64,000 nt of DNA, from the NCBI GenBank assembly GCA_016928395.1, contig JAFGKV010000186.1, positions 599 to 64,598 of the forward strand, written 5' to 3'. Position numbers and translations under genes: made by a program. This DNA comes from Candidatus Fermentibacterota bacterium. GTDB taxonomy: Bacteria > JAFGKV01. Under the pieces are notes generated by a model. That model saw nothing but the letters and a program-made list of their open reading frames with translations, was not told where the DNA came from and searched no databases. Shown in pieces: positions 8,322 to 56,042 of this stretch. Position 1 is the stretch's first letter. Every line of letters starts with the position of its first letter.

Positions 8322-9013
8322 GCCGCCCACGCATCCTGCTGACCAGTGACCGCGCCGTGGTGGGGGATCCCCCGCGCTTGGCCGACTTTGTCAACGCAGT
8401 GTATACCGAGGCTGTAGAGCGTGCCGGTGGACTGGTCACGCTGCTGCCCGCTGGCGATATCCATCGTGTGGCCGAGGCGCTAACCCACGCTGACGGCGTC
8501 CTCCTGACAGGAGGCCCGGACTACCGCAGAGCTGGTCTTGATCCCCATTCACGATATTGCCACACGCACCGCGAGAAACGTGATCTCGCGCTGTGGCCAC
8601 TCCTGGCGGAGCGATACCATGCTGTTCTGGGAATCTGTTTGGGCATGCAGCTCATGACGTTAGGAGCTGGGGGCGCATTGTACCAGGATCTTCCATCCCA
8701 AGCTCCTGATGCCGGGCTTCACCGAGGTACGCACCACCGCGTACGGCTGCGCCCCGACAGCAGGTTGGGAAGACTCCTCGGAAACACGATACTCGTCAAT
8801 TCCCGGCATCACCAGGCACTGAAACAGCCCGGCCACGGCTTCGTTGTCGCAGGATGGGCGACTGACGGCCTTGTCGAGGCCATTGAGGCTCCCGGACAGA
8901 GGTTCCTAGTCGGCGTGCAGTGGCACCCGGAAGGCATGCGCAGAAGCGCCCCTCAGCAGCGGCTCTTTCGCGCCTTCGTAGAGGCTTCGGGCAACGGTGG
9001 AAGATGGCCGTAG
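8318..9013 (+). CDS. Class I glutamine amidotransferase-like hydrolase (peptidase C26 / gamma-glutamyl-GABA hydrolase PuuD family).
   Basis: GICLGMQ nucleophile elbow and VQWHPE motif. The ATG at 8318 overlaps the lnt stop (ATGA). Confidence 0.75.
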   Translation: MSRPRILLTSDRAVVGDPPRLADFVNAVYTEAVERAGGLVTLLPAGDIHRVAEALTHADGVLLTGGPDYRRAGLDPHSRYCHTHREKRDLALWPLLAERYHAVLGICLGMQLMTLGAGGALYQDLPSQAPDAGLHRGTHHRVRLRPDSRLGRLLGNTILVNSRHHQALKQPGHGFVVAGWATDGLVEAIEAPGQRFLVGVQWHPEGMRRSAPQQRLFRAFVEASGNGGRWP

Positions 9014-26351: not shown

Positions 26352-26366
26352 TTTCTCCGTGCCGCA

Positions 26367-26392
26367 GAGAGCTCCATGCATGGAGCTCTCTT
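26367..26392. terminator. 26-bp perfect palindrome immediately after the mltD-like stop; candidate intrinsic terminator without a U-tract.
   Basis: AGAGAGCTCCATGCATGGAGCTCTCT is a perfect inverted repeat, 16 bp after the stop at 26351. Confidence 0.3.
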
Positions 26393-35929: not shown

Positions 35930-35965
35930 CCGCAGGACTATTCTAATATTAGAATAGTCCTGCGG
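35930..35965. repeat. 36-bp perfect palindrome with an AT-rich core CTATTCTA-ATAT-TAGAATAG; member of a palindrome family (see 48146 and 45144/45337).
   Basis: CCGCAGGACTATTCTAATATTAGAATAGTCCTGCGG verified base-by-base. It lies 29 bp after the permease stop and is a striking AT-rich core in a 67% GC background. Confidence 0.8.
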
Positions 35966-43450: not shown

Positions 43451-43544
43451 CGCGTTCCCTCGTATGAGTGCGCCGTAGCCAGCCTCCATGCCCGCTCGTC
43501 TCCCTGATCAACCCAGCGGCAGCGCTGAGCGACCGCCGCCGACT

Positions 43545-43964
43545 CTATTCCTCGACTTTCAGAGAGTTCTCCTTACACCATTCCAGGAGTCGGTCCTTGG
43601 TCTCCCGTGCCTCGAACTCATACCACGTCTCCAGCACACCCCGCCTGGCGAGGAGGTCCTTGAATCGGCCGTAGGCCCCTCGCCGACGGAAGATCTCCCT
43701 CACCCGCCACGGAAGCTCACCGCCAATCCCGTCCGCAAAGGCGAAAGCGAGACTCCGGCCTAGACCCAAGTCGTTCTTGTGGGGAATCGAGACGAAATCG
43801 TCGTCGAACTCTGCGTCTTCGGGAACCTCGTCCACATCGGCCATATCCGATCGGTAGAAGACCTCACCCGTAACCCTCGACACAAAGGCCGAGTTCGCGT
43901 ACTGAGGGGCCGAACTCACGAAGCTGAATGCCGCTTCGATATCAGAGTACGTGATCATGGTCAC
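43545..43964 (-). CDS. Hypothetical protein.
   Basis: 139-aa acidic protein with coding-like composition; slightly lower GC (~57%) than the flanks. No family recognised. Confidence 0.5.
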   Translation of the reverse strand: MTMITYSDIEAAFSFVSSAPQYANSAFVSRVTGEVFYRSDMADVDEVPEDAEFDDDFVSIPHKNDLGLGRSLAFAFADGIGGELPWRVREIFRRRGAYGRFKDLLARRGVLETWYEFEARETKDRLLEWCKENSLKVEE

Positions 43965-44773
43965 CTGTCCTCTCTTCCCTCATCGAGCGAGTCCAACGCG
44001 AGAATCTGCGGTAGACGCAGTTTTCGCATGACCCCACTACTGACGGATTCTCAGCGCGCGGCTGAACCCTTCCGTGCGCGACGTCTATCTTCTCACGAAG
44101 ATCAACCACTACCCCCGGTGATGATGCGGATGAGCCCCAAACAGGGCAAGGCATTCGCCACGCCCGCGCTGCCCTTGGCATCCGCTCTCACCTCTCCGTG
44201 GCCTGTTTCGCCGATGATACTCCAATTCAGTGGGGGAGACAAGTCGGCGCTCCTTGAGGAAGCGGACCGGAGGCAGAGGCGGCCTGTAGGGTCATCCGTT
44301 CGACCGTCCATGCGTGGCGGTCTGGTTCTCGCCCGTCGTGCCAACGCCGTTTTGGAATGGCTCTTCTTCGGCCAATCCGAAAGGGACCTCTTCTTCCTTT
44401 CTTCGGCACTGCGCACCGGCAACTGCCGACTCCTTGGAGTGCGGCGGCTCGCCGCCGCATTCGCCTGCGGGAGCTGGGCTCCCGCCATCCAAGGCGCAGG
44501 CAAGCCTGCGCAAACCAGTCGTCAAATCCAAGGTCGGTCAGTTCCACCGCCTTCACTCCTCCGTCGGCCACTCCACTTCGGCCTTCGCCGCTGTCCCGCC
44601 TTCCGCGGCACCTGCGGAGATCGCGATCATCAGACCGCCGATCACTCTCCGACCATGCTCCTCAGAGTGTCCATTTCAAACCAGCGATGGTGCTGTGGGA
44701 GCGACTCTTGGTCCGGCACGGCTGGATGCTGGGATCAGCCGTGACTCCCCCGTTCTGTTCCTGGTGTTCCCGG

Positions 44774-45085
44774 CTACTTCACCACCGTGATCGGGACGAA
44801 CTGGCGGGAGCCATCGCCCTCAACTCCCAGGAAGTACTGGCCGGTGGTGATGGTGTCCGGCAGTCTCAAGACGATCGTCGCGTCCGGTCCCATCCTCTCC
44901 GCCTGCTGCAGGCTCATCACCCGCCGCCCCAGCAGATCGACGACGGTAAGTCGGATCAGGCCTTGTCCTTCCAATCCCGCAACCCCGCATCCTTCGTTGC
45001 GGAACCATGGCGTGACGTGAAAACAGCACATCCGATCGGGGACTCCGTATGCGATTGGAACCCGCCGGAAAGCATTCGACCACAA
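44774..45085 (-). pseudogene. Orphan T9SS C-terminal sorting-domain remnant (3' end of a decayed cargo gene).
   Basis: Translation ...LIRLTVVDLLGRRVMSLQQAERMGPDATIVLRLPDTITTGQYFLGVEGDGSRQFVPITVVK* matches the T9SS C-terminal-domain pattern. No upstream catalytic region exists, and the 5' side runs into the IR-bounded element at 45152-45336. Confidence 0.45.
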
Positions 45086-45143
45086 GGATTCTGAGGATCG
45101 GCGGAATGCGTCGCAACTGGCTCACAAACAGGCAGGATCGGAG

Positions 45144-45343
45144 CTATTCTAGTCTGAGCCCACGTTGAGCGATTCCCCTCTACTGCGGCTTCCACCGCGC
45201 GGCTGCGCTGTTCGTTTCCCGCTTCGCCCTCTCGACGTATCCGGTGGATACGCCTCCGTCGTCTCAGCGCTCCAACATCGCGGCTCGCTCGCGCGTTGTG
45301 AGCCTCGCGACGACAAGAGTCGCTCAACGTGGGCTGAGAATAG
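45144..45343. mobile_element. ~185-bp inverted-repeat-bounded, highly structured element (MITE-like) inserted between the two half-sites of a CTATTCTA / TAGAATAG palindrome.
   Basis: Left: CTATTCTA-g-TCTGAGCCCACGTTGAGCG (45144-45171). Right: CGCTCAACGTGGGCTg-AGAATAG (45321-45343). TIR ~15/16 bp. The interior has several internal palindromes (CCGCGCGG, CGTATCCGGTGGATACG, GTCGTC...GACGAC). Confidence 0.4.
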
Positions 45344-45538
45344 TGGGCAGTATCGGCCCCGGCTGCGCCGGACGCGCGGCCCGAGCAGCCGGATCCATGG
45401 CCAGGTGCCGAGAGGGAGTGGTCAGTCTTCAGTTGTCGGTAACCAGTTGAGCGCAGGGGAAGCGGCGACACGAAACCGGCGAAGAATCCCCATCGTGCGA
45501 CGGAAGGACGCGCCATGGGTCGAGAAGCATGCGAACGC

Positions 45539-45637
45539 GATCCGATTGTATCCATCACAGCCCCTGGTGAAGGTCTCTCTCGGAACGGAATAGGCTTCAA
45601 GGAAGCCGATACCTCCTGCGCGGTCAAGCGGTTCGGG
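45539..45637. repeat. Copy A of a three-copy ~100-bp repeat family (core TATCCATCACAGCCCCTGGTGAAGGTCTCTCTCGGAACGG...GGCTTCAAGGAAG...GTCAAGC).
   Basis: Aligned by eye against copies B (49400-49505) and C (51838-51930); ~85-90% identity over the ~55-bp core. Confidence 0.6.
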
Positions 45638-45867
45638 TGCGACGTAAGGTCTTCCGCCGGCAAGCCTTGGAGATCCCCCAGGCCAAGAGCCCGAGGACTG
45701 ACCAGTCCTACTCTCATGGCCGTCCGTAGACCGCAGAGCCCCGCGCGCGGAGCGGCGTGGTTGCCTGACGGCTACTCGAGATCTTCGAGAGGAATTGTAT
45801 TGCCTTCCCGGGCTTCCCTTCGGGAGCGCTCAATCACCTTCCGGAACCGTGGGTCGTTGAGGAGCCG

Positions 45868-46014
45868 CTACTCGAGGTAATCATCCTCATCTCGGAAGCC
45901 CCTGAGCACTGCAACCGGTTTCCCGTGGCGTGTGATGATGATCTCCTCCCGGACCGCTCGCTTCACGCAGGCCGAGAGACTATCCTTCGCCTGACTAAGA
46001 GACATCGTGGTCAT
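45868..46014 (-). CDS. Phd/YefM-family antitoxin (short, 48 aa).
   Basis: MTTMSLSQAKDSLSACVKRAVREEIIITRHGKPVAVLRGFRDEDDYLE* has the Phd/YefM N-terminal signature (ITRHGKPVAVL). The ATG at 46014 overlaps the relE-like stop (ATGA). Confidence 0.7.
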   Translation of the reverse strand: MTTMSLSQAKDSLSACVKRAVREEIIITRHGKPVAVLRGFRDEDDYLE

Positions 46015-46307
46015 GAGTTCTTCACTCCATGTTCATCGAGCAATTCCCCAGCGCCAGCCTTTGGCACAATGGCCAGAACGATCACCTTCGCGCCGACGAC
46101 ATCGCAGAAGACCCTGTATTCATCGACCCGGAGACGGTACTCGGGATGCGCCATCGCGCGTAGCTTCTTGATTCGACTCCGGCTCGTCTTCGTCGGTTCG
46201 TACCGAAGATGGCGTTCGAGTTCAGTCTTCAGCACCGCACGCCACCGGGAACTCAAGGCCCGGTAGTGGCATTGAGCCGTAGTGGTTAGAACGATTTCGA
46301 AGCGCAT
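46011..46307 (-). CDS. RelE/ParE-family toxin.
   Basis: C-terminal KKLRAMAHPEYRLRVDEYRVFCDVVGAKVIVLAIVPK matches the RelE/ParE core (YRLRVGDYRVIY...V.IL.I.HR pattern). Confidence 0.75.
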   Translation of the reverse strand: MRFEIVLTTTAQCHYRALSSRWRAVLKTELERHLRYEPTKTSRSRIKKLRAMAHPEYRLRVDEYRVFCDVVGAKVIVLAIVPKAGAGELLDEHGVKNS

Positions 46308-46628
46308 GCCTGCAAGGTGGCGACTTTCTAACCAGAATCAAGGCCAGATTAAAGGCTATGTCTCATCTGGCCATGAGGTGGCCAGCGGAAGGGGGTACGC
46401 GGTCGGCCGACACCGCGTCGTAGGGCAACTGGAGAGCCTGGTGCGCCTGCCTGCCGCAGGCAGGTAGCGAAACACGCTCCTGTCGCGTCGCAGCTTCAGC
46501 GGAGACGGATGCCCGCCTGCGAAGCGGGCTGACTGCCGACTGAAGATTGCCGCCCCATCTCCTCACTCCTATCTCCTTACTCGACAGACCCCTTCGAGTC
46601 CTTCGTGTCTTCGCGGTGAGATTGCTGC

Positions 46629-46659
46629 CTTTGCGCTCTTTGCGCTCTTTGCGCCTTTG
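46629..46659. repeat. 9-bp tandem repeat (CTTTGCGCT) x ~3.5.
   Basis: ctttgcgct ctttgcgct ctttgcgc ctttg read directly, in the spacer between the RES gene end and the relE start. Confidence 0.6.
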
Positions 46660-46839
46660 TCGTTGACCCTGAGCGCAGTCGAGGGGCGGGAGATTCCCGT
46701 TTCGGATTTCCCGCGTAGCAAGCCGACTCTTCCATTCGTTCCAACTCGCCGATTATCCGGCGCATTCCCCACGTCCCTATGCCGGCCCTGGAGTGCGGAA
46801 TGCAGGAATGCCAGGACAAGCGGAGTGGGGTGGCCTCCG

Positions 46840-47310
46840 TCAGCGCGGCTTCGTGAGGCGGGGGTCGAAGCGGAACTCGGCGGCGCCGCCGATCCCGATG
46901 CGGGCGAAATCCGAATGCGCCGGGTTCAGCAGGAAGTTGGTCTCCACACGGACAATGGCGCTCGGCACGGCCAGCACCGCCGACGTACGACGCCTGACCC
47001 ACTCCGTGCCCAGACGACGGGTCGATGCGGGGGGCGGATCATCGGCCCAGTCAGCAGGAAGGTCGGCTGATGCCACTCGGAGGCAGATGGATTCGTCGAA
47101 CGTGATGGGCACGCTCACGTACAGACTCAGAAACTCAGGCGTGCCCAAGTGGGCGAGCATCTCTAACGCCGCCAGCGACAAGGATCCCGCGGTGTACACC
47201 ATGCGGATGCCCCGCTGGTTCCACCGGCCCGGGTACAGTCGTGCACCTTCGCCGGCAAACGCCGCTTTCGCATGCCTCGATTGGACGATTCGCCATGCGG
47301 TGATCGTCAA
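46840..47310 (-). CDS. RES-domain toxin (ParT/MbcT-like).
   Basis: GRWNQRGIRMVYTAGSLSLAALEMLAHL contains the R-E-S residues in the expected context. TTG start at 47310 overlaps the antitoxin stop (TTGA); the longer ORF to 47430 would overlap the antitoxin. Confidence 0.75.
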   Translation of the reverse strand: MTITAWRIVQSRHAKAAFAGEGARLYPGRWNQRGIRMVYTAGSLSLAALEMLAHLGTPEFLSLYVSVPITFDESICLRVASADLPADWADDPPPASTRRLGTEWVRRRTSAVLAVPSAIVRVETNFLLNPAHSDFARIGIGGAAEFRFDPRLTKPR

Positions 47311-47636
47311 GAAAAGACCCCGTGCTCCAATCGTCCCAGCAAGTCCTCGACCTCCCTCGCGCCGACCTCGGTGTCGGCATGCTGGAGCGGCGTTTGCCCC
47401 CGTAGCGCTTTCTTCGGTGACTTGAGCCACTGTCGCGCCTGCTCCTCGCCTCCGAGTGCCGCCACGGCGCTGTCGAACAGCGTGGCGATGCGGTAGACCT
47501 TCTCGGACTCGAGCGCCCTGAGTCTCCCCTCCTGTTTGCGGCGCGCGAGCGTTCGCCGTGCGATCGATACGAGGTCAGCCAGCTCGTAGACCGTGAGCTG
47601 TAGCTCGCTGCACAGCTTCTCGAAGGCCGTGAACAT
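47307..47636 (-). CDS. Xre/MbcA/ParS-family antitoxin (HTH + DUF2384-like toxin-binding domain).
   Basis: HTH LTVYELADLVSIARRTLARR; C-terminal ...ARQWLKSPKKALRGQTPLQHADTEVGAREVEDLLGRLEHGV typical of DUF2384. Start chosen at M76 (47636); the tracked ORF extends to 47861. Confidence 0.7.
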   Translation of the reverse strand: MFTAFEKLCSELQLTVYELADLVSIARRTLARRKQEGRLRALESEKVYRIATLFDSAVAALGGEEQARQWLKSPKKALRGQTPLQHADTEVGAREVEDLLGRLEHGVFS

Positions 47637-48145
47637 GAACCCTCTCTTGATCTCTTCGATGGCCCGTGCGCTACTGGCAAGCCGAAGCCCCAGCGCACTA
47701 CACGGCGGTCTCCGCGATCGGCCTCGCAGGCGCAGAGCCGATGCGTCAACGGTGGCGAACCCATACTGGGTCCACCCGTACACCGAGCCTGGTTCGCGAA
47801 CGCGGGCGATCTCCTCTGGTGAAGTCGTGACCGCAGTGTCTCGGGTGCGTGAGCGGGGCATTCCTACCTCCTTATGCCATTATGCACTGGAAGATCCGCC
47901 AAATGGCATGCATTGTCAAGATGGAGAAGCACGACCAGCTCGCTGCCGCTACTTCTCGGTACGACACGGGAATCCAACGCGCCCGTCGGTGCGTGAGTGG
48001 CGGACACGGTGCGGAGCACACGCCATGTTCCACCGATGCCGTACGGCTCATCTGCCCGCGTCGCCTCGTCGAGTCGCCGGAGTGTTCTCCACGTCCGTAG
48101 GTACCGAGCGTGGCGAACTGCGAGTCAAGACAGCCCGTGCGGGCC

Positions 48146-48167
48146 ACTATTCTAAACTTAGAATAGT
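48146..48167. repeat. Second copy of the AT-rich palindrome: ACTATTCTAA-AC-TTAGAATAGT.
   Basis: Read directly; shares the CTATTCTA / TAGAATAG half-sites with 35930-35965. Located in the 730-bp divergent spacer between the Xre-RES and mazEF-like operons. Confidence 0.7.
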
Positions 48168-48317
48168 TCGTAGTGTAGCCGTGGAGTACCATGTCGCCAT
48201 GCTTCAGAGGGTTCGGAAGCCCTTTCTGGAGCGCTCTTTCGTTCAACAACCTGACACTTGCCAACGCCCCTAGACCGGCCTCGGTGTTTGTTCGCGAGAG
48301 AGGGTGGCAGGCACAGG

Positions 48318-48357
48318 ATATTCCATGCCCGGAATATTCCTGGCATGGAATATTGGC
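48318..48357. repeat. Array of three ATATTCC half-sites forming a ~36-bp near-perfect palindrome centred on GGAATATTCC.
   Basis: AGGATATTCCATGCCCGGAATATTCCTGGCATGGAATATTGG; 34/36 positions self-complementary when checked against its reverse complement. Confidence 0.7.
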
Positions 48358-48588
48358 TCTCGGCGCGTCGCCCGGCTGTCCGGAAAGCCTGTCCCTAGAC
48401 CGGGATGCCTCGCTATCCTTTGCGTCCTTGCCTGCTCTTCGTGAGATTCCCGTTTGGCTTCTTGCGCTTCCCGAGTAATGCGTTCAGGATTTCCCGCGCA
48501 GCACTGCGCGGTGGGCTTGACTGCAGCGTGCCTCAATCCCTTCTTGGCAGAAGTGATGTCAAGAGGACAAGGGGTAAAGGAGTAGGAG

Positions 48589-48843
48589 ATGGCAGAGGAG
48601 ATGGCAGAGGACACGGCGTTGGCGTACAGCAGGCTGTCCAGTAAGGGACAAGTCACCGTTCCTCTCAAGGTCCGGGAGGCGTTGGGATTGAAGGCTCGTG
48701 ACATAGTGGCGTACGAGGTCCGCCCTGACGGTGTGGTTTTGCGCAGGGCCGAACCATTCGATGTGGAGTTTTATCGTGCCCTCGCCTCCACGCTGGAGGA
48801 ATGGAACTCCCCGGAGGATGAAGAGGCATTCCGTGACCTGTGA
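48589..48843 (+). CDS. AbrB/MazE/SpoVT-family antitoxin.
   Basis: SKGQVTVPLKVREALGLKARDIVAYE is the swapped-hairpin AbrB/MazE signature. Confidence 0.75.
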   Translation: MAEEMAEDTALAYSRLSSKGQVTVPLKVREALGLKARDIVAYEVRPDGVVLRRAEPFDVEFYRALASTLEEWNSPEDEEAFRDL

Positions 48844-49168
48844 TCAGTGGGACGTGGTCGCTGTTCCGTTCCCGTTCTCGGAGTCATCGGGGGCGAAGCG
48901 ACGTCCTGCAGTGGTCCTCAGCGGGCGAACCTTCAACAATGCCGGCCACGTCGTACTCGCCATGGTGACCACACAGCAGCATCGCCCGTGGCCCGGTGAC
49001 ACGCCGGTTGCCGACATAGATCGGGCAGGCCTTCCGCGCCCGTGCATCGTTCGACTGAAGCTCTTCACGCTGGATGCGCGGCTGATTGCCCGGAGACTCG
49101 GCACGCTCGGTACGGATGACATCGCGGCAGTGCGAGCGAGCCTTCGCACATATCTCTCGTGCGATTGA
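48836..49168 (+). CDS. PemK/MazF-family toxin.
   Basis: WDVVAVPFPFSESSGAKRRPAVVLS...VLAMVTT matches the MazF/PemK/CcdB-fold consensus. GTG start overlaps the antitoxin stop (GTGACCTGTGA). Confidence 0.75.
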   Translation, partial: TCDQWDVVAVPFPFSESSGAKRRPAVVLSGRTFNNAGHVVLAMVTTQQHRPWPGDTPVADIDRAGLPRPCIVRLKLFTLDARLIARRLGTLGTDDIAAVRASLRTYLSCD

Positions 49169-49399
49169 GCCTCAACCAGCGCACGCCCTCCCCGGGGGGC
49201 GAACCACGCCATGTCTGGAGCACACGCGGTCCTGTCTCCGCTTCCGCGGCTCGATTCTGACTTCAGAACAGTGCCCGAGACCCCTCCATCCGACTCGGCT
49301 TCCGTCTGCTCTCCGTGTGGTCAGACTGCCTCCCCACGTTCCTTCGCGCAATCCCCGCGGCGAGCGCTGCGGACCGCTGCGGCGAGCGGGATTGGAGGA

Positions 49400-49505
49400 T
49401 GTCCGATCGATCATATCCATCACAGCCTTTAGTGAAGGTCTCTCTCGGAACGGGACAGGCTTCAAGGAAGAGCCTCGACCCAGGACCGTCAAGCCCGCCG
49501 GTTCA
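49400..49505. repeat. Copy B of the three-copy ~100-bp repeat family.
   Basis: GTCCGATCGATCATATCCATCACAGCCTTTAGTGAAGGTCTCTCTCGGAACGGGACAGGCTTCAAGGAAG...CCGTCAAGC. Confidence 0.6.
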
Positions 49506-49662
49506 GCTTCGCGCCCTCCGCGGAGCCCGGGGAAATCACGATTTTAGGACCACACACAGTGCCCAGGCATGCGCACTGGAGCGTCCAACTCACGCCGATG
49601 ATTCTGTCCAATGTGCAGCCGGTGGTGAACGTGGCGAACATGCCGTTGGGGCACCGTATGTC

Positions 49663-50388
49663 TCATCCGTCTTCTTCGCCGGTCTTGTCGGTACCTCTAG
49701 ACATCCGCAGAAAGACAACGGAGTTCGCATTCCTGAATGGGGTGTCGTACTTGCACGCGAGAGATTCAACGAGGTCCACCTCGACCCATTCATTGTCGCG
49801 GGAGATTCTCTTCAGGCACTCGACTGAGACCGTCTCACTGAGCACATCGGGCAGTTTCTGATCAAGATACTGGTTATACCCGACTGGTATTGTTACGAGC
49901 GCCTTCCCGTCAGGAGTGAGAAGGGCCTGGACCTTCCTCAGGGCGGTAATCACCGATTCCTGCTGTCTCGGCCTCTCATCCCATCCCACATGCTCTATGG
50001 TCGAGATGGATACGATGACGTCGAATCGCCGCCCCGGGCGGAACGCGAGGAGATCCTGGTTGAGTACCGGTCTGTACGTACATCGTTCCCATTTGTCGAT
50101 GACGGTATGACCTATGTCGAAGTAATGGGACAAGACGTTGCCGACTTCGAGAGTCGTGGAAGGAGATGCCTTTCCCAGGAATTCACGCACATATGGGATT
50201 TCGACGGCACGTTCATTTGCCCATGTATGGTTATATGGATGGAAGAAGTACGGGTATTCACGTCCGCCAAGATGGAAGGTCCGCGTCCGCAGCGGGTTGC
50301 GATGTTCGCGGATAGTCCAGCGGATGCGATCGCTGAAGCATCGACGCCACAGCTTGAACTCCATACTGGAATCGCGCAGAATGCTCAA
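49663..50388 (-). CDS. Methyltransferase-fold protein (class I SAM-MTase-like, 'type 11'-like), in a lower-GC region.
   Basis: FDVIVSISTIEHV (post-motif-II block) and a weak motif I (TLEVGNV). Region GC is ~53% versus ~67% in the flanks (hand-counted on four 60-nt lines). Confidence 0.55.
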   Translation of the reverse strand: MSILRDSSMEFKLWRRCFSDRIRWTIREHRNPLRTRTFHLGGREYPYFFHPYNHTWANERAVEIPYVREFLGKASPSTTLEVGNVLSHYFDIGHTVIDKWERCTYRPVLNQDLLAFRPGRRFDVIVSISTIEHVGWDERPRQQESVITALRKVQALLTPDGKALVTIPVGYNQYLDQKLPDVLSETVSVECLKRISRDNEWVEVDLVESLACKYDTPFRNANSVVFLRMSRGTDKTGEEDG

Positions 50389-51837: not shown

Positions 51838-51930
51838 GATCCGACCGTATCCATCACAGCCCCTGGTAAAGGTTCATCTCGGAACGGGATGAGACCAAAG
51901 AGCAACATTGACTCCGCACCGTCAACGCCG
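51838..51930. repeat. Copy C of the three-copy ~100-bp repeat family.
   Basis: GATCCGACCGTATCCATCACAGCCCCTGGTAAAGGTTCATCTCGGAACGGGATGAG...ACCGTCAACGCC. Confidence 0.6.
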
Positions 51931-52535: not shown

Positions 52536-52611
52536 GGGCGGGTAGCTCAGCTGGCAGAGCACCGGCGTCACAAGCCGGGGGCCACAGGTTCAAGCCCTGT
52601 TCCGCCCACCA
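52536..52611 (+). tRNA. tRNA-Val (anticodon CAC), 76 nt including encoded CCA.
   Basis: Cloverleaf folded by hand: acceptor GGGCGGG/TCCGCCC (G-U closing), D-arm GCTC-AGCTGGCA-GAGC, anticodon stem CCGGC/GCCGG with loop GTCACAA, T-arm ACAGG-TTCAAGC-CCTGT, discriminator A, CCA. Position 32 = G is unusual. Confidence 0.8.
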
Positions 52612-53404: not shown

Positions 53405-53885
53405 GTCAGGGACGGCCCCAGGCGATCGCCTCCCGGCAGCGCCGGGGGGAGGAAAGTCCGAGCTCCCCGGGGCAGGGTGCTTCGTAACGCGAAGGCCGGG
53501 TGACCGGCGGAAAGCGCCACAGAAAGTATACCGCCCCGCACCCAAAGGCTGCGGTGCCCCTGCACTGCAGCAGTCTGGTTTCTTTATCCGCCGCCTTTGG
53601 GTGCGGGGTAAGGGTGAAACGGTGAGGTAAGAGCTCACCGGTTCCGGAGGCGACTCCGGAAGCCGGGCAAGCCCCACCTGGAGCAAGGCCAAATAGGGAG
53701 GAATGAGCCGCCCCGACTCTCATCCTCCGGGTAGGCCGCGTGAGCCCGTCGGTGACGGCGGGCCCAGATGAATGATCGCCACCCCGCACCCACGAGCCGC
53801 GAAGGGGGAGCAGGCAATGCCCATGTTCCCGCTGCGCTGCTTGTGGGTGCGGGGAACAGAACTCGGCTTATGGGGCCGTCCCATG
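53405..53885 (+). ncRNA. rnpB: RNase P RNA, bacterial type A (rnpB), ~480 nt with an apparently elongated terminal hairpin before the P4 3' strand.
   Basis: Universally conserved blocks present: GGAGGAAAGTCCGAGCTCC (P4 5'), GGCAGGGTG, ACAGAAAGTATACCGCC, GGTAAGGGTGAAACGGTG-AGGTAAGAGCTCACC (P10-12), GCAAGGCCAAATAGGGAG, GATGAATGA, AACAGAACTCGGCTTAT (P4 3'). P1 pairing GGGACGGCCCC (53408) with GGGGCCGTCCC (53872-53882). Confidence 0.85.
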
Positions 53886-56042
53886 ACGCTATCGTCCGAT
53901 GCTTTTATCGCCGGTGTAAGGGATCTCGATCCCAGCCTCGACACCGTCATCCTTGGCCGCGCGTTCGACATGGCATCCGCGGCCCATCGCGACCAGATGC
54001 GTGCCTCTGGTGAGGCATACTTCAGCCATCCCCAGGCCGTGGCGCTCACCGTTGCCCGCCTGGGCCAGGGCAGTGACGCGGTAGCCGCTGCCCTGCTTCA
54101 CGACGTCGTCGAAGACGGCGGCGTCACCATCGACAATGTGCGACGCGCCTTTGGCCCCGGCATCGCGACTCTGGTGGCGGCACTGTCCAAGATGTCTGCC
54201 CTCGAGACCCCCCAACGGGAGGCCCGTCAGGCCGAGTACTTCCGGCGTCTCCTCCTGGCATTGGGCGAAGATGTGCGGGTGATCGTCATTAAGCTGGCAG
54301 ATCGCCTCCACAACATGCAGACCCTTTCCTTTCTCGCCCCTGACCGCCAGCGCTCCATCGCCACTGAAACCCTGGATATCTATGCGCCCCTCGCCCATCG
54401 CCTGGGAATGGGGTGGTTTCGTGTGCAGTTGGAGGATCTCGCCTTCAAAGAGCTCGATCCGGCATCGTATCAGCAGATGAAGGAACGTGTCGCTGCCCGG
54501 CGAGAGGAACGCGAGTCTATGGTGGAGGGATTGGCCGCTCCTCTGGCCGCCATGCTCACCGCGGAGGGAATCTGCGGGCAGGTGGTTGGGAGGGTGAAGC
54601 ACTTCTACGGCATCTATCGGAAGATGAAGCTCAACGGGAAGTCGTTCGATGAGATCTTCGACCTGGTAGGTCTTCGAGTCATCACGCAGTCAGTGGAGGA
54701 CTGCTATCGGGCGTTGGGTCTGGCCCACACAATGTGGGCCCCGGTGGAAGGGCGTTTCAAGGACTACATCGCGGTTCCCAAACCCAACATGTATCAAAGC
54801 ATCCACACCACGGTCAAAACCGAGGAGGGTGTCACCGTGGAGTTGCAGATACGGACCTCGGTGATGGACACCATTGCTGAATTCGGCGTTGCGGCACACT
54901 GGCGATACCATCTGGAGCAAACCGGAAAACGCTACGTGGCCAAGGAGCATTTTCGCTGGATTCGACAGCTCCTCGAGTCAGAAACCGCCGAGGATGCCCG
55001 GAGGGATCTGCTGGGCGCCTTCCGCGACGGAACCCGAGACGCCGAGGTCATGGTGCTGACGCCCCGCGGCAAGTTGATTCCCATGCGGGCCGGTTCTACG
55101 GCCCTTGACTTCGCATTCTCCCTGCACTCCGATATTGGGCTGCACTGCGCCGGCGCCCGGGTCAATGGAAAGGCCGTCACGCTGGATCATGTCCTGAGCA
55201 GTGGTGATCAGGTGGAGATTCTCACCTCCCCTGCAGCCCATCCCACCCCAGGCTGGCTCACCAGGGTGGCGGGCACCAGTGCCCGTCAGAAGATCAGGCG
55301 ATACCTTCGGCGAGCAGAGCGTGAGCGACTTCAGGCGTCAGGACGGACACTGCTCCTACGGTATCTGCGCAAAGAGAAGCTCCCGCTTCCCAAGACGGGG
55401 ATTGCGTGGGATGAGCTAGCCCAGACCCTTCAGTATCCTACGGTTACTGAACTTCTTCATGCCGCGGCCATTGGCGCCGTGAGCCGTTCCCATCTGGCAG
55501 CGCTGCGACCCAAGGAGGAACCATCGCCATCTCAGGAACCCCTGCGCGACATACCCCATGAAGCCCGGGGAATTCGTTTGGGCGATCTCCGCGGGATTGC
55601 CGTCAGATTCGCCGAATGCTGCCGGCCGATTCCGGGTGACAGGATCACCGCCATGGTGACCAGGGGCCGGGGCGCCAGTATCCATCGCGTTGATTGCAGC
55701 AATGCCTTCCGAGGCGACGCCGAACGGTGGATCACCGTGGAGTGGGATGTGGCGCACGGAGAGACCTTCAGTGCCCACTTGGCCGTACTGGTCGGCCAAC
55801 GGAGAACGGTGCTGGGAGACATGGAGGCGGCAATCCAGGGTGCAGGCGCACGGCTGGGAGGGATTGAGATCACCAGCGACATTGACGGATCTCGTTGGCT
55901 GCAACTGGTGGTGGTCGTGACGGGCACACAGCATGTGGACGCAGTGCTGACGGCGATCCGCAAGCTGCCCGGCGTCCTTGAGGCGGCGCGGGGACGCCCC
56001 ACCAGGCCTGGCCGAAGAGTGCAGAGAGCGATCCAGTCGTGA
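53883..56042 (+). CDS. Bifunctional (p)ppGpp synthetase/hydrolase, RelA/SpoT family (long RSH).
   Basis: HD hydrolase domain (HRDQMRASGEAYFSHP...HDVVED), synthetase domain (GRVKHFYGIYRKM, DLVGLRVI), TGS and ACT-like C-terminal regions; 719 aa. The ATG at 53883 follows the last rnpB nucleotide directly. Confidence 0.9.
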   Translation: MTLSSDAFIAGVRDLDPSLDTVILGRAFDMASAAHRDQMRASGEAYFSHPQAVALTVARLGQGSDAVAAALLHDVVEDGGVTIDNVRRAFGPGIATLVAALSKMSALETPQREARQAEYFRRLLLALGEDVRVIVIKLADRLHNMQTLSFLAPDRQRSIATETLDIYAPLAHRLGMGWFRVQLEDLAFKELDPASYQQMKERVAARREERESMVEGLAAPLAAMLTAEGICGQVVGRVKHFYGIYRKMKLNGKSFDEIFDLVGLRVITQSVEDCYRALGLAHTMWAPVEGRFKDYIAVPKPNMYQSIHTTVKTEEGVTVELQIRTSVMDTIAEFGVAAHWRYHLEQTGKRYVAKEHFRWIRQLLESETAEDARRDLLGAFRDGTRDAEVMVLTPRGKLIPMRAGSTALDFAFSLHSDIGLHCAGARVNGKAVTLDHVLSSGDQVEILTSPAAHPTPGWLTRVAGTSARQKIRRYLRRAERERLQASGRTLLLRYLRKEKLPLPKTGIAWDELAQTLQYPTVTELLHAAAIGAVSRSHLAALRPKEEPSPSQEPLRDIPHEARGIRLGDLRGIAVRFAECCRPIPGDRITAMVTRGRGASIHRVDCSNAFRGDAERWITVEWDVAHGETFSAHLAVLVGQRRTVLGDMEAAIQGAGARLGGIEITSDIDGSRWLQLVVVVTGTQHVDAVLTAIRKLPGVLEAARGRPTRPGRRVQRAIQS

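Follow-up and report, generated by a model that had tools for sequence, protein, structure and literature searches.

A 64,000-nt stretch of a Candidatus Fermentibacterota contig (JAFGKV010000186.1; hereafter the window) carries a perfect AT-rich palindrome of 36 bp, and similar half-sites recur in the same stretch, once as an intact site and once separated by a segment bounded by inverted repeats. An earlier note on this DNA read the palindrome mainly as the specific integration target of the inverted-repeat-bounded element, and alternatively as the operator of a dimeric regulator. We asked which of these, if either, the palindrome is, and what became of the split copy.

Palindrome copies in the window

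The three sites listed in the earlier note (35930-35965, 45144-45343 and 48146-48167) lie where it had placed them, and copy 1 is indeed a perfect palindrome (Table 1). Their anatomy had to be revised. The half-sites are not 8 bp long with three or four nucleotides between them: copies 1 and 2 both read ACTATTCTAA-NN-TTAGAATAGT, with half-sites of 9-10 bp around a free centre of 2 bp. The GC content of the window is 62.6%, not 67%. With up to 3 mismatches allowed, the pattern CTATTCTANNNNTAGAATAG occurs twice in the window against 0.05 expected, and none of 100 shuffles contained it two or more times; the 8-mer TAGAATAG is found five times against 0.20 expected.

The 20-bp core of copy 1 (35938-35957) is followed by A/T and then by a locus-specific complementary extension of 7 bp. 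This copy lies 36 nt past the stop codon of an ABC-transporter permease-like gene (gene end 35901), and as RNA it is computed to fold into a hairpin of -27.3 kcal/mol. Copy 2 (core CTATTCTAAACTTAGAATAG, 48147-48166) has no additional complementarity beyond its A/T flanks and is located between two divergent toxin-antitoxin operons, an Xre/RES pair (-) and a MazE/PemK-like pair (+). A decayed fourth copy is alignable with intact copies of the composite element described below; its position relative to repeat 2 at 49404-49470 is that of the intact palindromes in the related loci L071 and L028.

Table 1. Positions of the palindrome copies, the inserted element and neighbouring features in the window.
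Feature	Position	Strand	Description
Palindrome copy 1	35930-35965	.	Perfect 36-bp palindrome, CCGCAGGACTATTCTAATATTAGAATAGTCCTGCGG (direct sequence; self-BLAST)
Palindrome copy 2	48146-48167 with the common A/T flanks	.	ACTATTCTAA-AC-TTAGAATAGT
Copy 3, left part	45144-45158	.	CTATTCTAGT and first CTGAG (45154-45158)
Copy 3, right part	45334-45343	.	Second CTGAG (45334-45338) and AATAG
MITE	45159-45333	+	175 bp, 66% GC, no credible ORF
Composite repeat E1, left flank	45060-45143	+	Homologous to the left flanks of intact L071:650, L017:1887 and L017:3843
Composite repeat E1, right flank	45344-45420	+	Homologous to the right flanks of L071, L017 (two copies) and L028
Decayed fourth copy	49252-49271	.	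CGATTCTGACTTCAGAACAG, 4/18 mismatches
Repeat 2	45538-45605		Core GATCCGATCGTATCCATCACAGCCCCTGGTGAAGGTCTCTCTCGGAACGGAATAGGCT; comes after the right flank of E1
Repeat 2	49404-49470
Repeat 2	51838-51887
Short ORF	44774-45085	-	Ends in GQYFLGVEGDGSRQFVPITVVK; directly left of the composite repeat
RelE/ParE-like gene	46011-46307	-
RES toxin	46840-47430	-
Xre/MbcA-type antitoxin	47307-47861	-
MazE/PrlF-like gene	48589-48843	+
PemK-like toxin	to 49168	+
Unrelated palindrome	48318-48353		36 bp, 34/36, centre GGAATATTCC; 150 bp from copy 2
Unrelated palindrome	26366-26391		Perfect, 26 bp, AGAGAGCTCCATGCATGGAGCTCTCT; 15 nt past a gene end
tRNA-Val(CAC)	52536-52611
Class A RNase P RNA	53409-53886		273 bits; two large insertions compared with the Rfam model

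A dispersed repeat of the lineage

When one genome from each of 185,579 species was scanned for the exact pattern, 88 loci were returned, half of which (44/88) come from a single metagenome-assembled genome (MAG), Candidatus Eisenbacteria isolate Prado127 (JALOPK01; ~64% GC). The Prado127 loci, 288 kb in all, hold 44 exact copies and only one copy with a single mismatch. The window is related to this genome, since its genes at 34.1-35.9 kb share 74-80% nucleotide identity with those of Prado127 locus L026 and one protein pair is 85% identical. When JGI metagenomes were scanned with the 22-mer, at least 120 loci with at least 126 copies were obtained, and among the matches listed the loci with the palindrome are mostly of 40-55% GC. 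The palindrome is a lineage-specific dispersed repeat, of which Ca. Eisenbacteria and relatives have dozens to hundreds of copies, most of them intergenic. This high copy number had escaped the earlier note; it is not that of a handful of operators.

The consensus of the copies is A-CTATTCTAA-NN-TTAGAATAG-T. In the lower-GC relatives among the matches listed, the unit is a 28-mer, GGCA-CTATTCTAA-NN-TTAGAATAG-TGCC, whose GGCA/TGCC clamp is retained in 75-85% of the copies. In the Prado127 loci, T is found at +1 outside the core in 86 of 92 half-sites. The flank profiles are symmetric (T at +1, G at +2 on either side); beyond a few subfamilies, the flanks of the Prado127 copies are unrelated to each other. 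In the metagenome copies (at least 126), the half-sites are exact and the central dinucleotide varies (TA 31, TG 28, CG 24, CA 14, CC 14, GG 7, GC 5 and others).

Among the metagenome matches listed, 97 of 126 copies have CG, TG/CA or TA at the centre. Such a series is the expectation from C-to-T deamination of a central CpG (AACGTT), and possibly points to methylation of a cytosine in the site.

Intergenic positions account for 44 of 46 copies and, among the metagenome matches listed, for 115 of 126, and all gene arrangements are represented. Intergenic copies between convergent genes outnumber those between divergent genes by 28 to 14 among the matches listed (binomial p = 0.044). The density is about one copy per 20-70 kb, and solo half-sites are rare. 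No target duplication or target motif beyond chance was found around the 20-, 22- or 28-bp unit. Among the nearest genes of ~170 copies there was no recurrent transposase or RAYT-like cluster and no recurrent regulator; the genes that recur beside the palindromes encode only large secreted proteins, AAA ATPases and one GGDEF protein.

The orthologous position in Prado127 locus L026, where the upstream genes are orthologous and the downstream sequence is unalignable, lacks copy 1, so palindrome sites turn over between relatives. The fetched loci included only four orthologous pairs, and the palindrome is kept in all of these.

About 30% of the lower-GC copies, among the matches listed, are part of an asymmetric composite repeat (e.g. 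L124:2528-2620, L125, L107, L108 and L145). One flank of this composite carries another hairpin repeat (TGGAGGGACGC...GGCCCTCCA), and the other carries one or two degenerate sites (CTATTTACGAGG-TAGAATAGTGCC) located 33-36 bp from the full palindrome in an arrangement like that of an operator array.

A putative PadR-type operator in the core

Genomes outside the repeat-rich lineages have about one exact 20-mer each, mostly in the fully symmetric form CTATTCTAATATTAGAATAG. In 13 loci it is followed, at a distance of 4-22 nt, by a gene belonging to a single PadR subfamily (PF03551, E 1e-14 to 1e-15; motif RGMREWTEIGFSSIYY). These loci belong to eight Chloroflexota, one Rhodospirillaceae, two Spirochaetes, one Clostridium and one Hodarchaeota, and span at least five other phyla, including an alphaproteobacterium and an Asgard archaeon. 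In several of them the 20-mer overlaps the sequence TTGACA/TTGACT-16/17-TAGAAT, so that the right half-site would serve as the -10 box, and some of the PadR mRNAs are predicted to be leaderless, with the start codon 4 nt past the palindrome. Autoregulated repressors classically have this arrangement. The location of the 20-mer on the promoter of this subfamily in 13 loci marks the palindrome core, on sequence grounds, as a PadR-type operator sequence, and lends substance to the operator reading that had been the second choice in the earlier note.

As the 13 loci had been reached through the palindrome, six homologues picked by protein similarity alone served as an independent test. AT-rich dyads are present directly upstream of the gene in all six: one is identical to the 20-mer at 18 of 20 positions (ATATTCTAATATTAGAATAA), one has the common TATTCTA/TAGAATA half-sites (ATATTCTAGTAGTAGAATAT), and four have a different dyad. 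These data suggest that operator and regulator co-vary within the PadR family, which would make the window palindrome one operator class. The subfamily comprises 2,348 proteins at E <= 1e-10, mostly from Chloroflexota, with no NCBIfam equivalog and no close PDB entry.

Downstream of the PadR gene in L210-L215 is a conserved operon, often with a GyrI-like gene (PF06445) followed by a BtrH_N/DUF4872 gene (peptidase C39-like), and efflux or ABC transporters are frequent among the divergent neighbours. The palindrome of L060/L070 and L046 faces a gene for an SbcD/Mre11-like phosphoesterase. The comparison would define, for the first time as far as we found, the operator and the conserved operon partners of a large PadR subfamily (>2,300 proteins).

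Neither tblastn nor a profile search detected a PadR of this subfamily in the 64-kb window, the 44 Prado127 loci or the 119 metagenome loci; in the repeat-rich lineages this search covered about 1 Mb around ~170 copies. We infer PadR-type binding in the repeat-rich lineages from the identity of the site.

Insertion of a MITE into copy 3

In the split site, CTATTCTA (45144-45151) and AGAATAG (45337-45343) enclose a segment bounded by inverted repeats. The junctions read CTATTCTAGT-CTGAG-(CCCACGTTGAGCGATTC ... GAGTCGCTCAACGTGGG)-CTGAG-AATAG, and 5 bp is the sole duplication length that gives a true direct repeat. Excision of 45159-45338 yields CTATTCTAGTCTGAGAATAG, exactly 20 bp with 2 mismatches to the consensus, so the separated half-sites align with the full sites. 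The terminal inverted repeats reported earlier as 15-16 bp are present, but they measure 17 bp (45159-45175 and 45317-45333; 16/17 complementary), and the outer CTGAG that had been counted as part of them belongs to the 5-bp direct repeat. The duplicated nucleotides are positions 11-15 of the 20-mer, which places the insertion off the palindrome centre to which it had been assigned.

The flanks of copy 3 (composite repeat E1 in Table 1) align with those of four Prado127 elements (L071:650, L017:1887, L017:3843 and L028:102), all of which contain intact palindromes (alignment A4). Because these four paralogues with homologous flanks keep the palindrome intact, the window site is the filled copy; the comparison is between paralogous elements in a related MAG. 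With intact paralogues, a 5-bp duplication and 20 bp restored by excision, copy 3 was broken by a true insertion, that of a 175-bp MITE. The earlier proposal of an inserted nonautonomous element of ~185 bp is upheld in this respect; its site specificity is not, as the other targets of the element are AT-rich sequences (see below). The half-sites are the best conserved block of alignment A4, also in copies that the pattern did not retrieve; the composite family includes three of these, with 1, 2 and 4 mismatches.

The split copy is part of a larger composite repeat, which had also been missed. Repeat 2, present three times in the window, is found elsewhere in L071:720-815, L028:185-282 and L013. 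Several copies are found 65-190 nt from a palindrome, on one side of it and in a fixed orientation, which suggests that repeat 2 and the palindrome form a larger composite element. The short ORF to the left of E1 resembles the C-terminal sorting/Ig-like domain of the large secreted proteins that recur beside the Prado127 palindromes, and may be a gene remnant.

Homologues of the MITE were searched by BLAST and with a covariance model in the metagenome loci that had been fetched for the palindrome. The model (R1) scores the window element at 188.6 bits on the + strand and 43.4 bits on the - strand. The segment bounded by the inverted repeats folds into a closed, long rod-like hairpin (-98.9 kcal/mol, z = -5.3 on the + strand). 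Two homologues (L171 and L187) are ~70% identical to it, and aligning the three sequences yields a rod-like consensus fold with 61 pairs, of which 12 are changed on both sides. The ends are conserved among the homologues, with matching changes on both sides. About 10 full copies and additional fragments were found in ~0.6 Mb of related metagenome loci, several of them at contig ends; further copies of the element, on which the earlier note had made its reading depend, do exist. There is one copy in the window, the covariance model found none in the Prado127 loci, and the exact pair of ends had 0 matches in the metagenome scan.

Perfect 5-bp repeats flank 9 of the 11 full copies. The duplicated target of the window copy is CTGAG; those of the others include AAATT, GATTT, GATTA, AAATC, AATTT and TATTT. 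The ~10 other full copies all lie outside palindromes. Since their targets are generic AT-rich sequences, targeting is AT-rich and not palindrome-specific. The element represents a new but ordinary MITE family that prefers AT-rich targets, and would strike the palindrome merely because AT-rich islands are few in a genome of 63% GC. No transposase associated with the MITE ends was seen among the fetched loci. The end sequence to look for at a parent IS is CCYAMDTTGAGCGATTC (ends CC...GG); going by the CC ends and the 4-5-bp duplications, we guess that this parent is perhaps IS1380-like. Together with the other small hairpin repeats, the 175-bp MITE suggests that insertions accumulate in the few AT-rich islands of these GC-rich genomes. 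The point is relevant to the assembly and annotation of such MAGs because many of the repeat copies are at contig ends.

The closed rod-like fold led us to consider 6S RNA, Y RNA and retron ncRNA, which were rejected because the element is multi-copy with target duplications and is not followed by a reverse transcriptase gene. Rfam 15 gave no match in 44000-49500 at E <= 5, and none in the MITE homologues L187 and L161 at E <= 1.

An 8.7-kb metagenome contig (L180) is bounded by inverted copies of the MITE family at 1-186 and 8454-8639, either as a composite transposon or by assembly breaks at the repeats. Five palindromes (L124:2271, L125(-):3551, L145:1623, L159(-):1607 and L188(-):2856) are cut after position 15, between GGCACTATTCTAANNTTAG and TCGTCATGA, by a small element with the inverted ends TTAGTCGTCATGAC...GTCATGACGACTAA, which is distinct from the window MITE. 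The break position, after TTAG, is the same as that of the left junction of the window MITE. These five are either independent insertions or one amplified composite.

Comparison with known repeats and operators

The REP, BIME and REPIN elements of Proteobacteria are mobilised by RAYT transposases, and IHF, gyrase or Pol I binds to some of them. The palindrome resembles them as a short palindromic unit (20-40 bp) with tens to hundreds of lineage-specific, intergenic copies, enriched near gene 3′ ends and in convergent regions, with a conserved stem and a variable loop or centre, and sometimes assembled in composite mosaics. It differs from them in being perfectly symmetric, AT-rich in a GC-rich genome and without a 5′ tetranucleotide of the GTAG type; moreover, no RAYT was found among its neighbours, and its core is a putative transcription-factor operator of other phyla. 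We file it as a repetitive extragenic palindrome built on a PadR-type operator, a variant of REP-like repeats.

PadR-family operators, such as those of PadR/padC and LmrR, contain the dyad ATGT-N8-ACAT. The likeness consists in an inverted repeat for a winged-helix dimer that overlaps the regulator's own promoter, the arrangement seen in the 13 loci. The half-site here is nevertheless TTAGAATAG with a 2-bp centre, the subfamily is uncharacterised, and in the lineage of the window the site is multiplied genome-wide and not beside a PadR gene.

Correia elements (CREE) of Neisseria are likewise small non-coding repeats that spread a regulatory or protein-binding sequence, but they are 100-155 bp long with 26-bp inverted ends and duplicate TA, whereas the palindrome is only 20-28 bp long and shows no duplication. 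The 175-bp insert is a classical MITE (inverted ends, target duplication, no ORF, many copies) and differs from Correia elements in duplicating 5 bp and ending in CC...GG. The inverted DUS/USS pairs of Neisseria and Pasteurellaceae share with the palindrome an exact short motif placed intergenically near gene ends. However, DUS/USS are mostly single motifs, occur about once per kb and also lie inside genes, in contrast to one palindrome per 20-70 kb with few solo half-sites.

Other motifs that were considered, namely parS, dif/Xer sites, serine-recombinase crossover sites, protelomerase targets, DUS and LexA, Fur, Zur, ArgR or Irr boxes, do not fit in sequence, copy number or spacing. We found no relevant literature on the motif, on repeats of Eisenbacteria or on the operon of the PadR gene.

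What the palindrome might be

We lean, a little beyond even chances, towards a repeat-borne PadR-type operator that has multiplied in the lineage and acts as a REP-like, protein-bound element, with copy 3 broken by the MITE. Each 9-bp half-site (TTAGAATAG) would be read by one subunit of a dimeric winged-helix protein and the 2-bp centre would be left uncontacted. The multiplied operator would now be an intergenic, hairpin-capable element bound by protein and no longer the switch of a single gene, and selection on binding would preserve the half-sites. Constraint on the half-sites is suggested by the free centre beside exact half-sites and by their place as the best conserved block of alignment A4, a conservation that is in part ascertainment, as the loci were fetched with the exact pattern. 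The GGCA/TGCC clamp lies outside the PadR-type core and looks like common descent by copying and not like binding. Against an operator role, the positions of the copies relative to genes show no operator-like pattern, and convergent regions are favoured. In a bolder version, which we consider rather unlikely, the operator itself (20-bp core, 28-bp unit) became a genome-wide repeat that is kept exact by the winged-helix dimer, its spread having proceeded without target duplications or a detectable transposase. It would amount either to a PadR regulon or decoy network of very large size that arose as the repeat spread, or to a new minimal mobile palindrome, whose 'transposase' would be a PadR-like DNA-binding protein or hairpin-templated copying.

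Many of the same observations would also be expected of a selfish hairpin repeat of the REP/REPIN or MITE kind, mobilised in trans by a RAYT/IS200-IS605-type or other hairpin-recognising protein and devoid of a regulatory role, with the PadR-operator identity left over from an ancestral capture and not reflecting present-day PadR binding. The high intergenic copy number, the preference for convergent over divergent regions, the turnover seen at copy 1, the clamp conserved past the PadR-type core, the embedding of ~30% of copies in larger repeated elements and the lack of a PadR gene near the copies all agree with such a repeat. We regard it as possible but doubtful, given that the nearest genes of ~170 copies include no recurrent transposase or RAYT, that the unit edges show neither a target duplication nor a motif, and that the palindrome is perfectly symmetric without the asymmetric 5′ GTAG of classical REPs; an identity of 18/18 to PadR operators in five phyla is also unlikely to be irrelevant. 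The specific-target reading preferred in the earlier note is highly improbable in our estimate. One such insertion is present in the window, and in the metagenomes another small hairpin element interrupts five palindromes at this position, after TTAG, but more than 170 palindromes are uninterrupted, and the location of the ~10 other full MITE copies in generic AT-rich pentamers outside palindromes largely refutes it.

Two further readings concern transcription. The copies might act as hairpins at transcript 3′ ends, that is, as bidirectional terminators or mRNA-stabilising stem-loops, often lengthened by locus-specific arms. Copy 1 suits this role in position and folding energy, and 19 of the 44 Prado127 copies have complementary arms of at least 4 bp (range 4-12 bp), against 0.6% in controls. 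These arms differ between loci, and the longest ones lie within 75 nt of a stop codon in 8 of 10 cases compared with 10 of 34 (p = 0.008 with a post hoc cut-off). Insertion into the loops of existing hairpins is disfavoured because arm complementarity begins right at the core; the arms might stem from hairpin-templated correction (template switching) or from selection that favours a stronger 3′ hairpin. We nonetheless consider a 3′-end role unlikely. No T-tract follows the stem of any window copy or of the extended Prado127 copies, the terminator scan found nothing at any window site, and 14 copies, including window copy 2, lie between divergent genes; an intrinsic (Rho-independent) terminator was rejected on these grounds. 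The unextended AT-rich arms of 9 bp are weak (-8.4 kcal/mol), and the need for an identical 18-base sequence would be left unexplained. Less probable still is a portable bidirectional promoter, in which the outward -10-like TAGAAT of each half-site would drive divergent transcripts from every copy. The PadR loci do use the right half-site as the presumed -10 box of a canonical promoter, several with mRNAs that would be leaderless, and some composite elements have conserved sequence after the half-site in a fixed orientation. However, neither intact window copy has a -35 element at the right distance, the promoter scan was negative at all window palindrome sites, the flanks are unrelated between copies, and about a quarter of the copies, among the matches listed, are between convergent genes.

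In eukaryotes there is ample documentation of transcription-factor binding sites spread by repeats, a process that is rare in bacteria. If a PadR-type protein binds the palindrome, as our preferred reading of a multiplied operator implies, the repeat would be a clear prokaryotic case and would provide a handle on regulation in a phylum without cultured members.

Surroundings of the repeats

Most of the repeats described above are located in a toxin-antitoxin island of low coding density (43500-49700; genes in Table 1), for which the Logan assembly SRR13394437 contains an identical contig of 5.4 kb. The two unrelated palindromes of the window have no copies among the fetched loci. The window also encodes a class A RNase P RNA and a tRNA-Val (Table 1).
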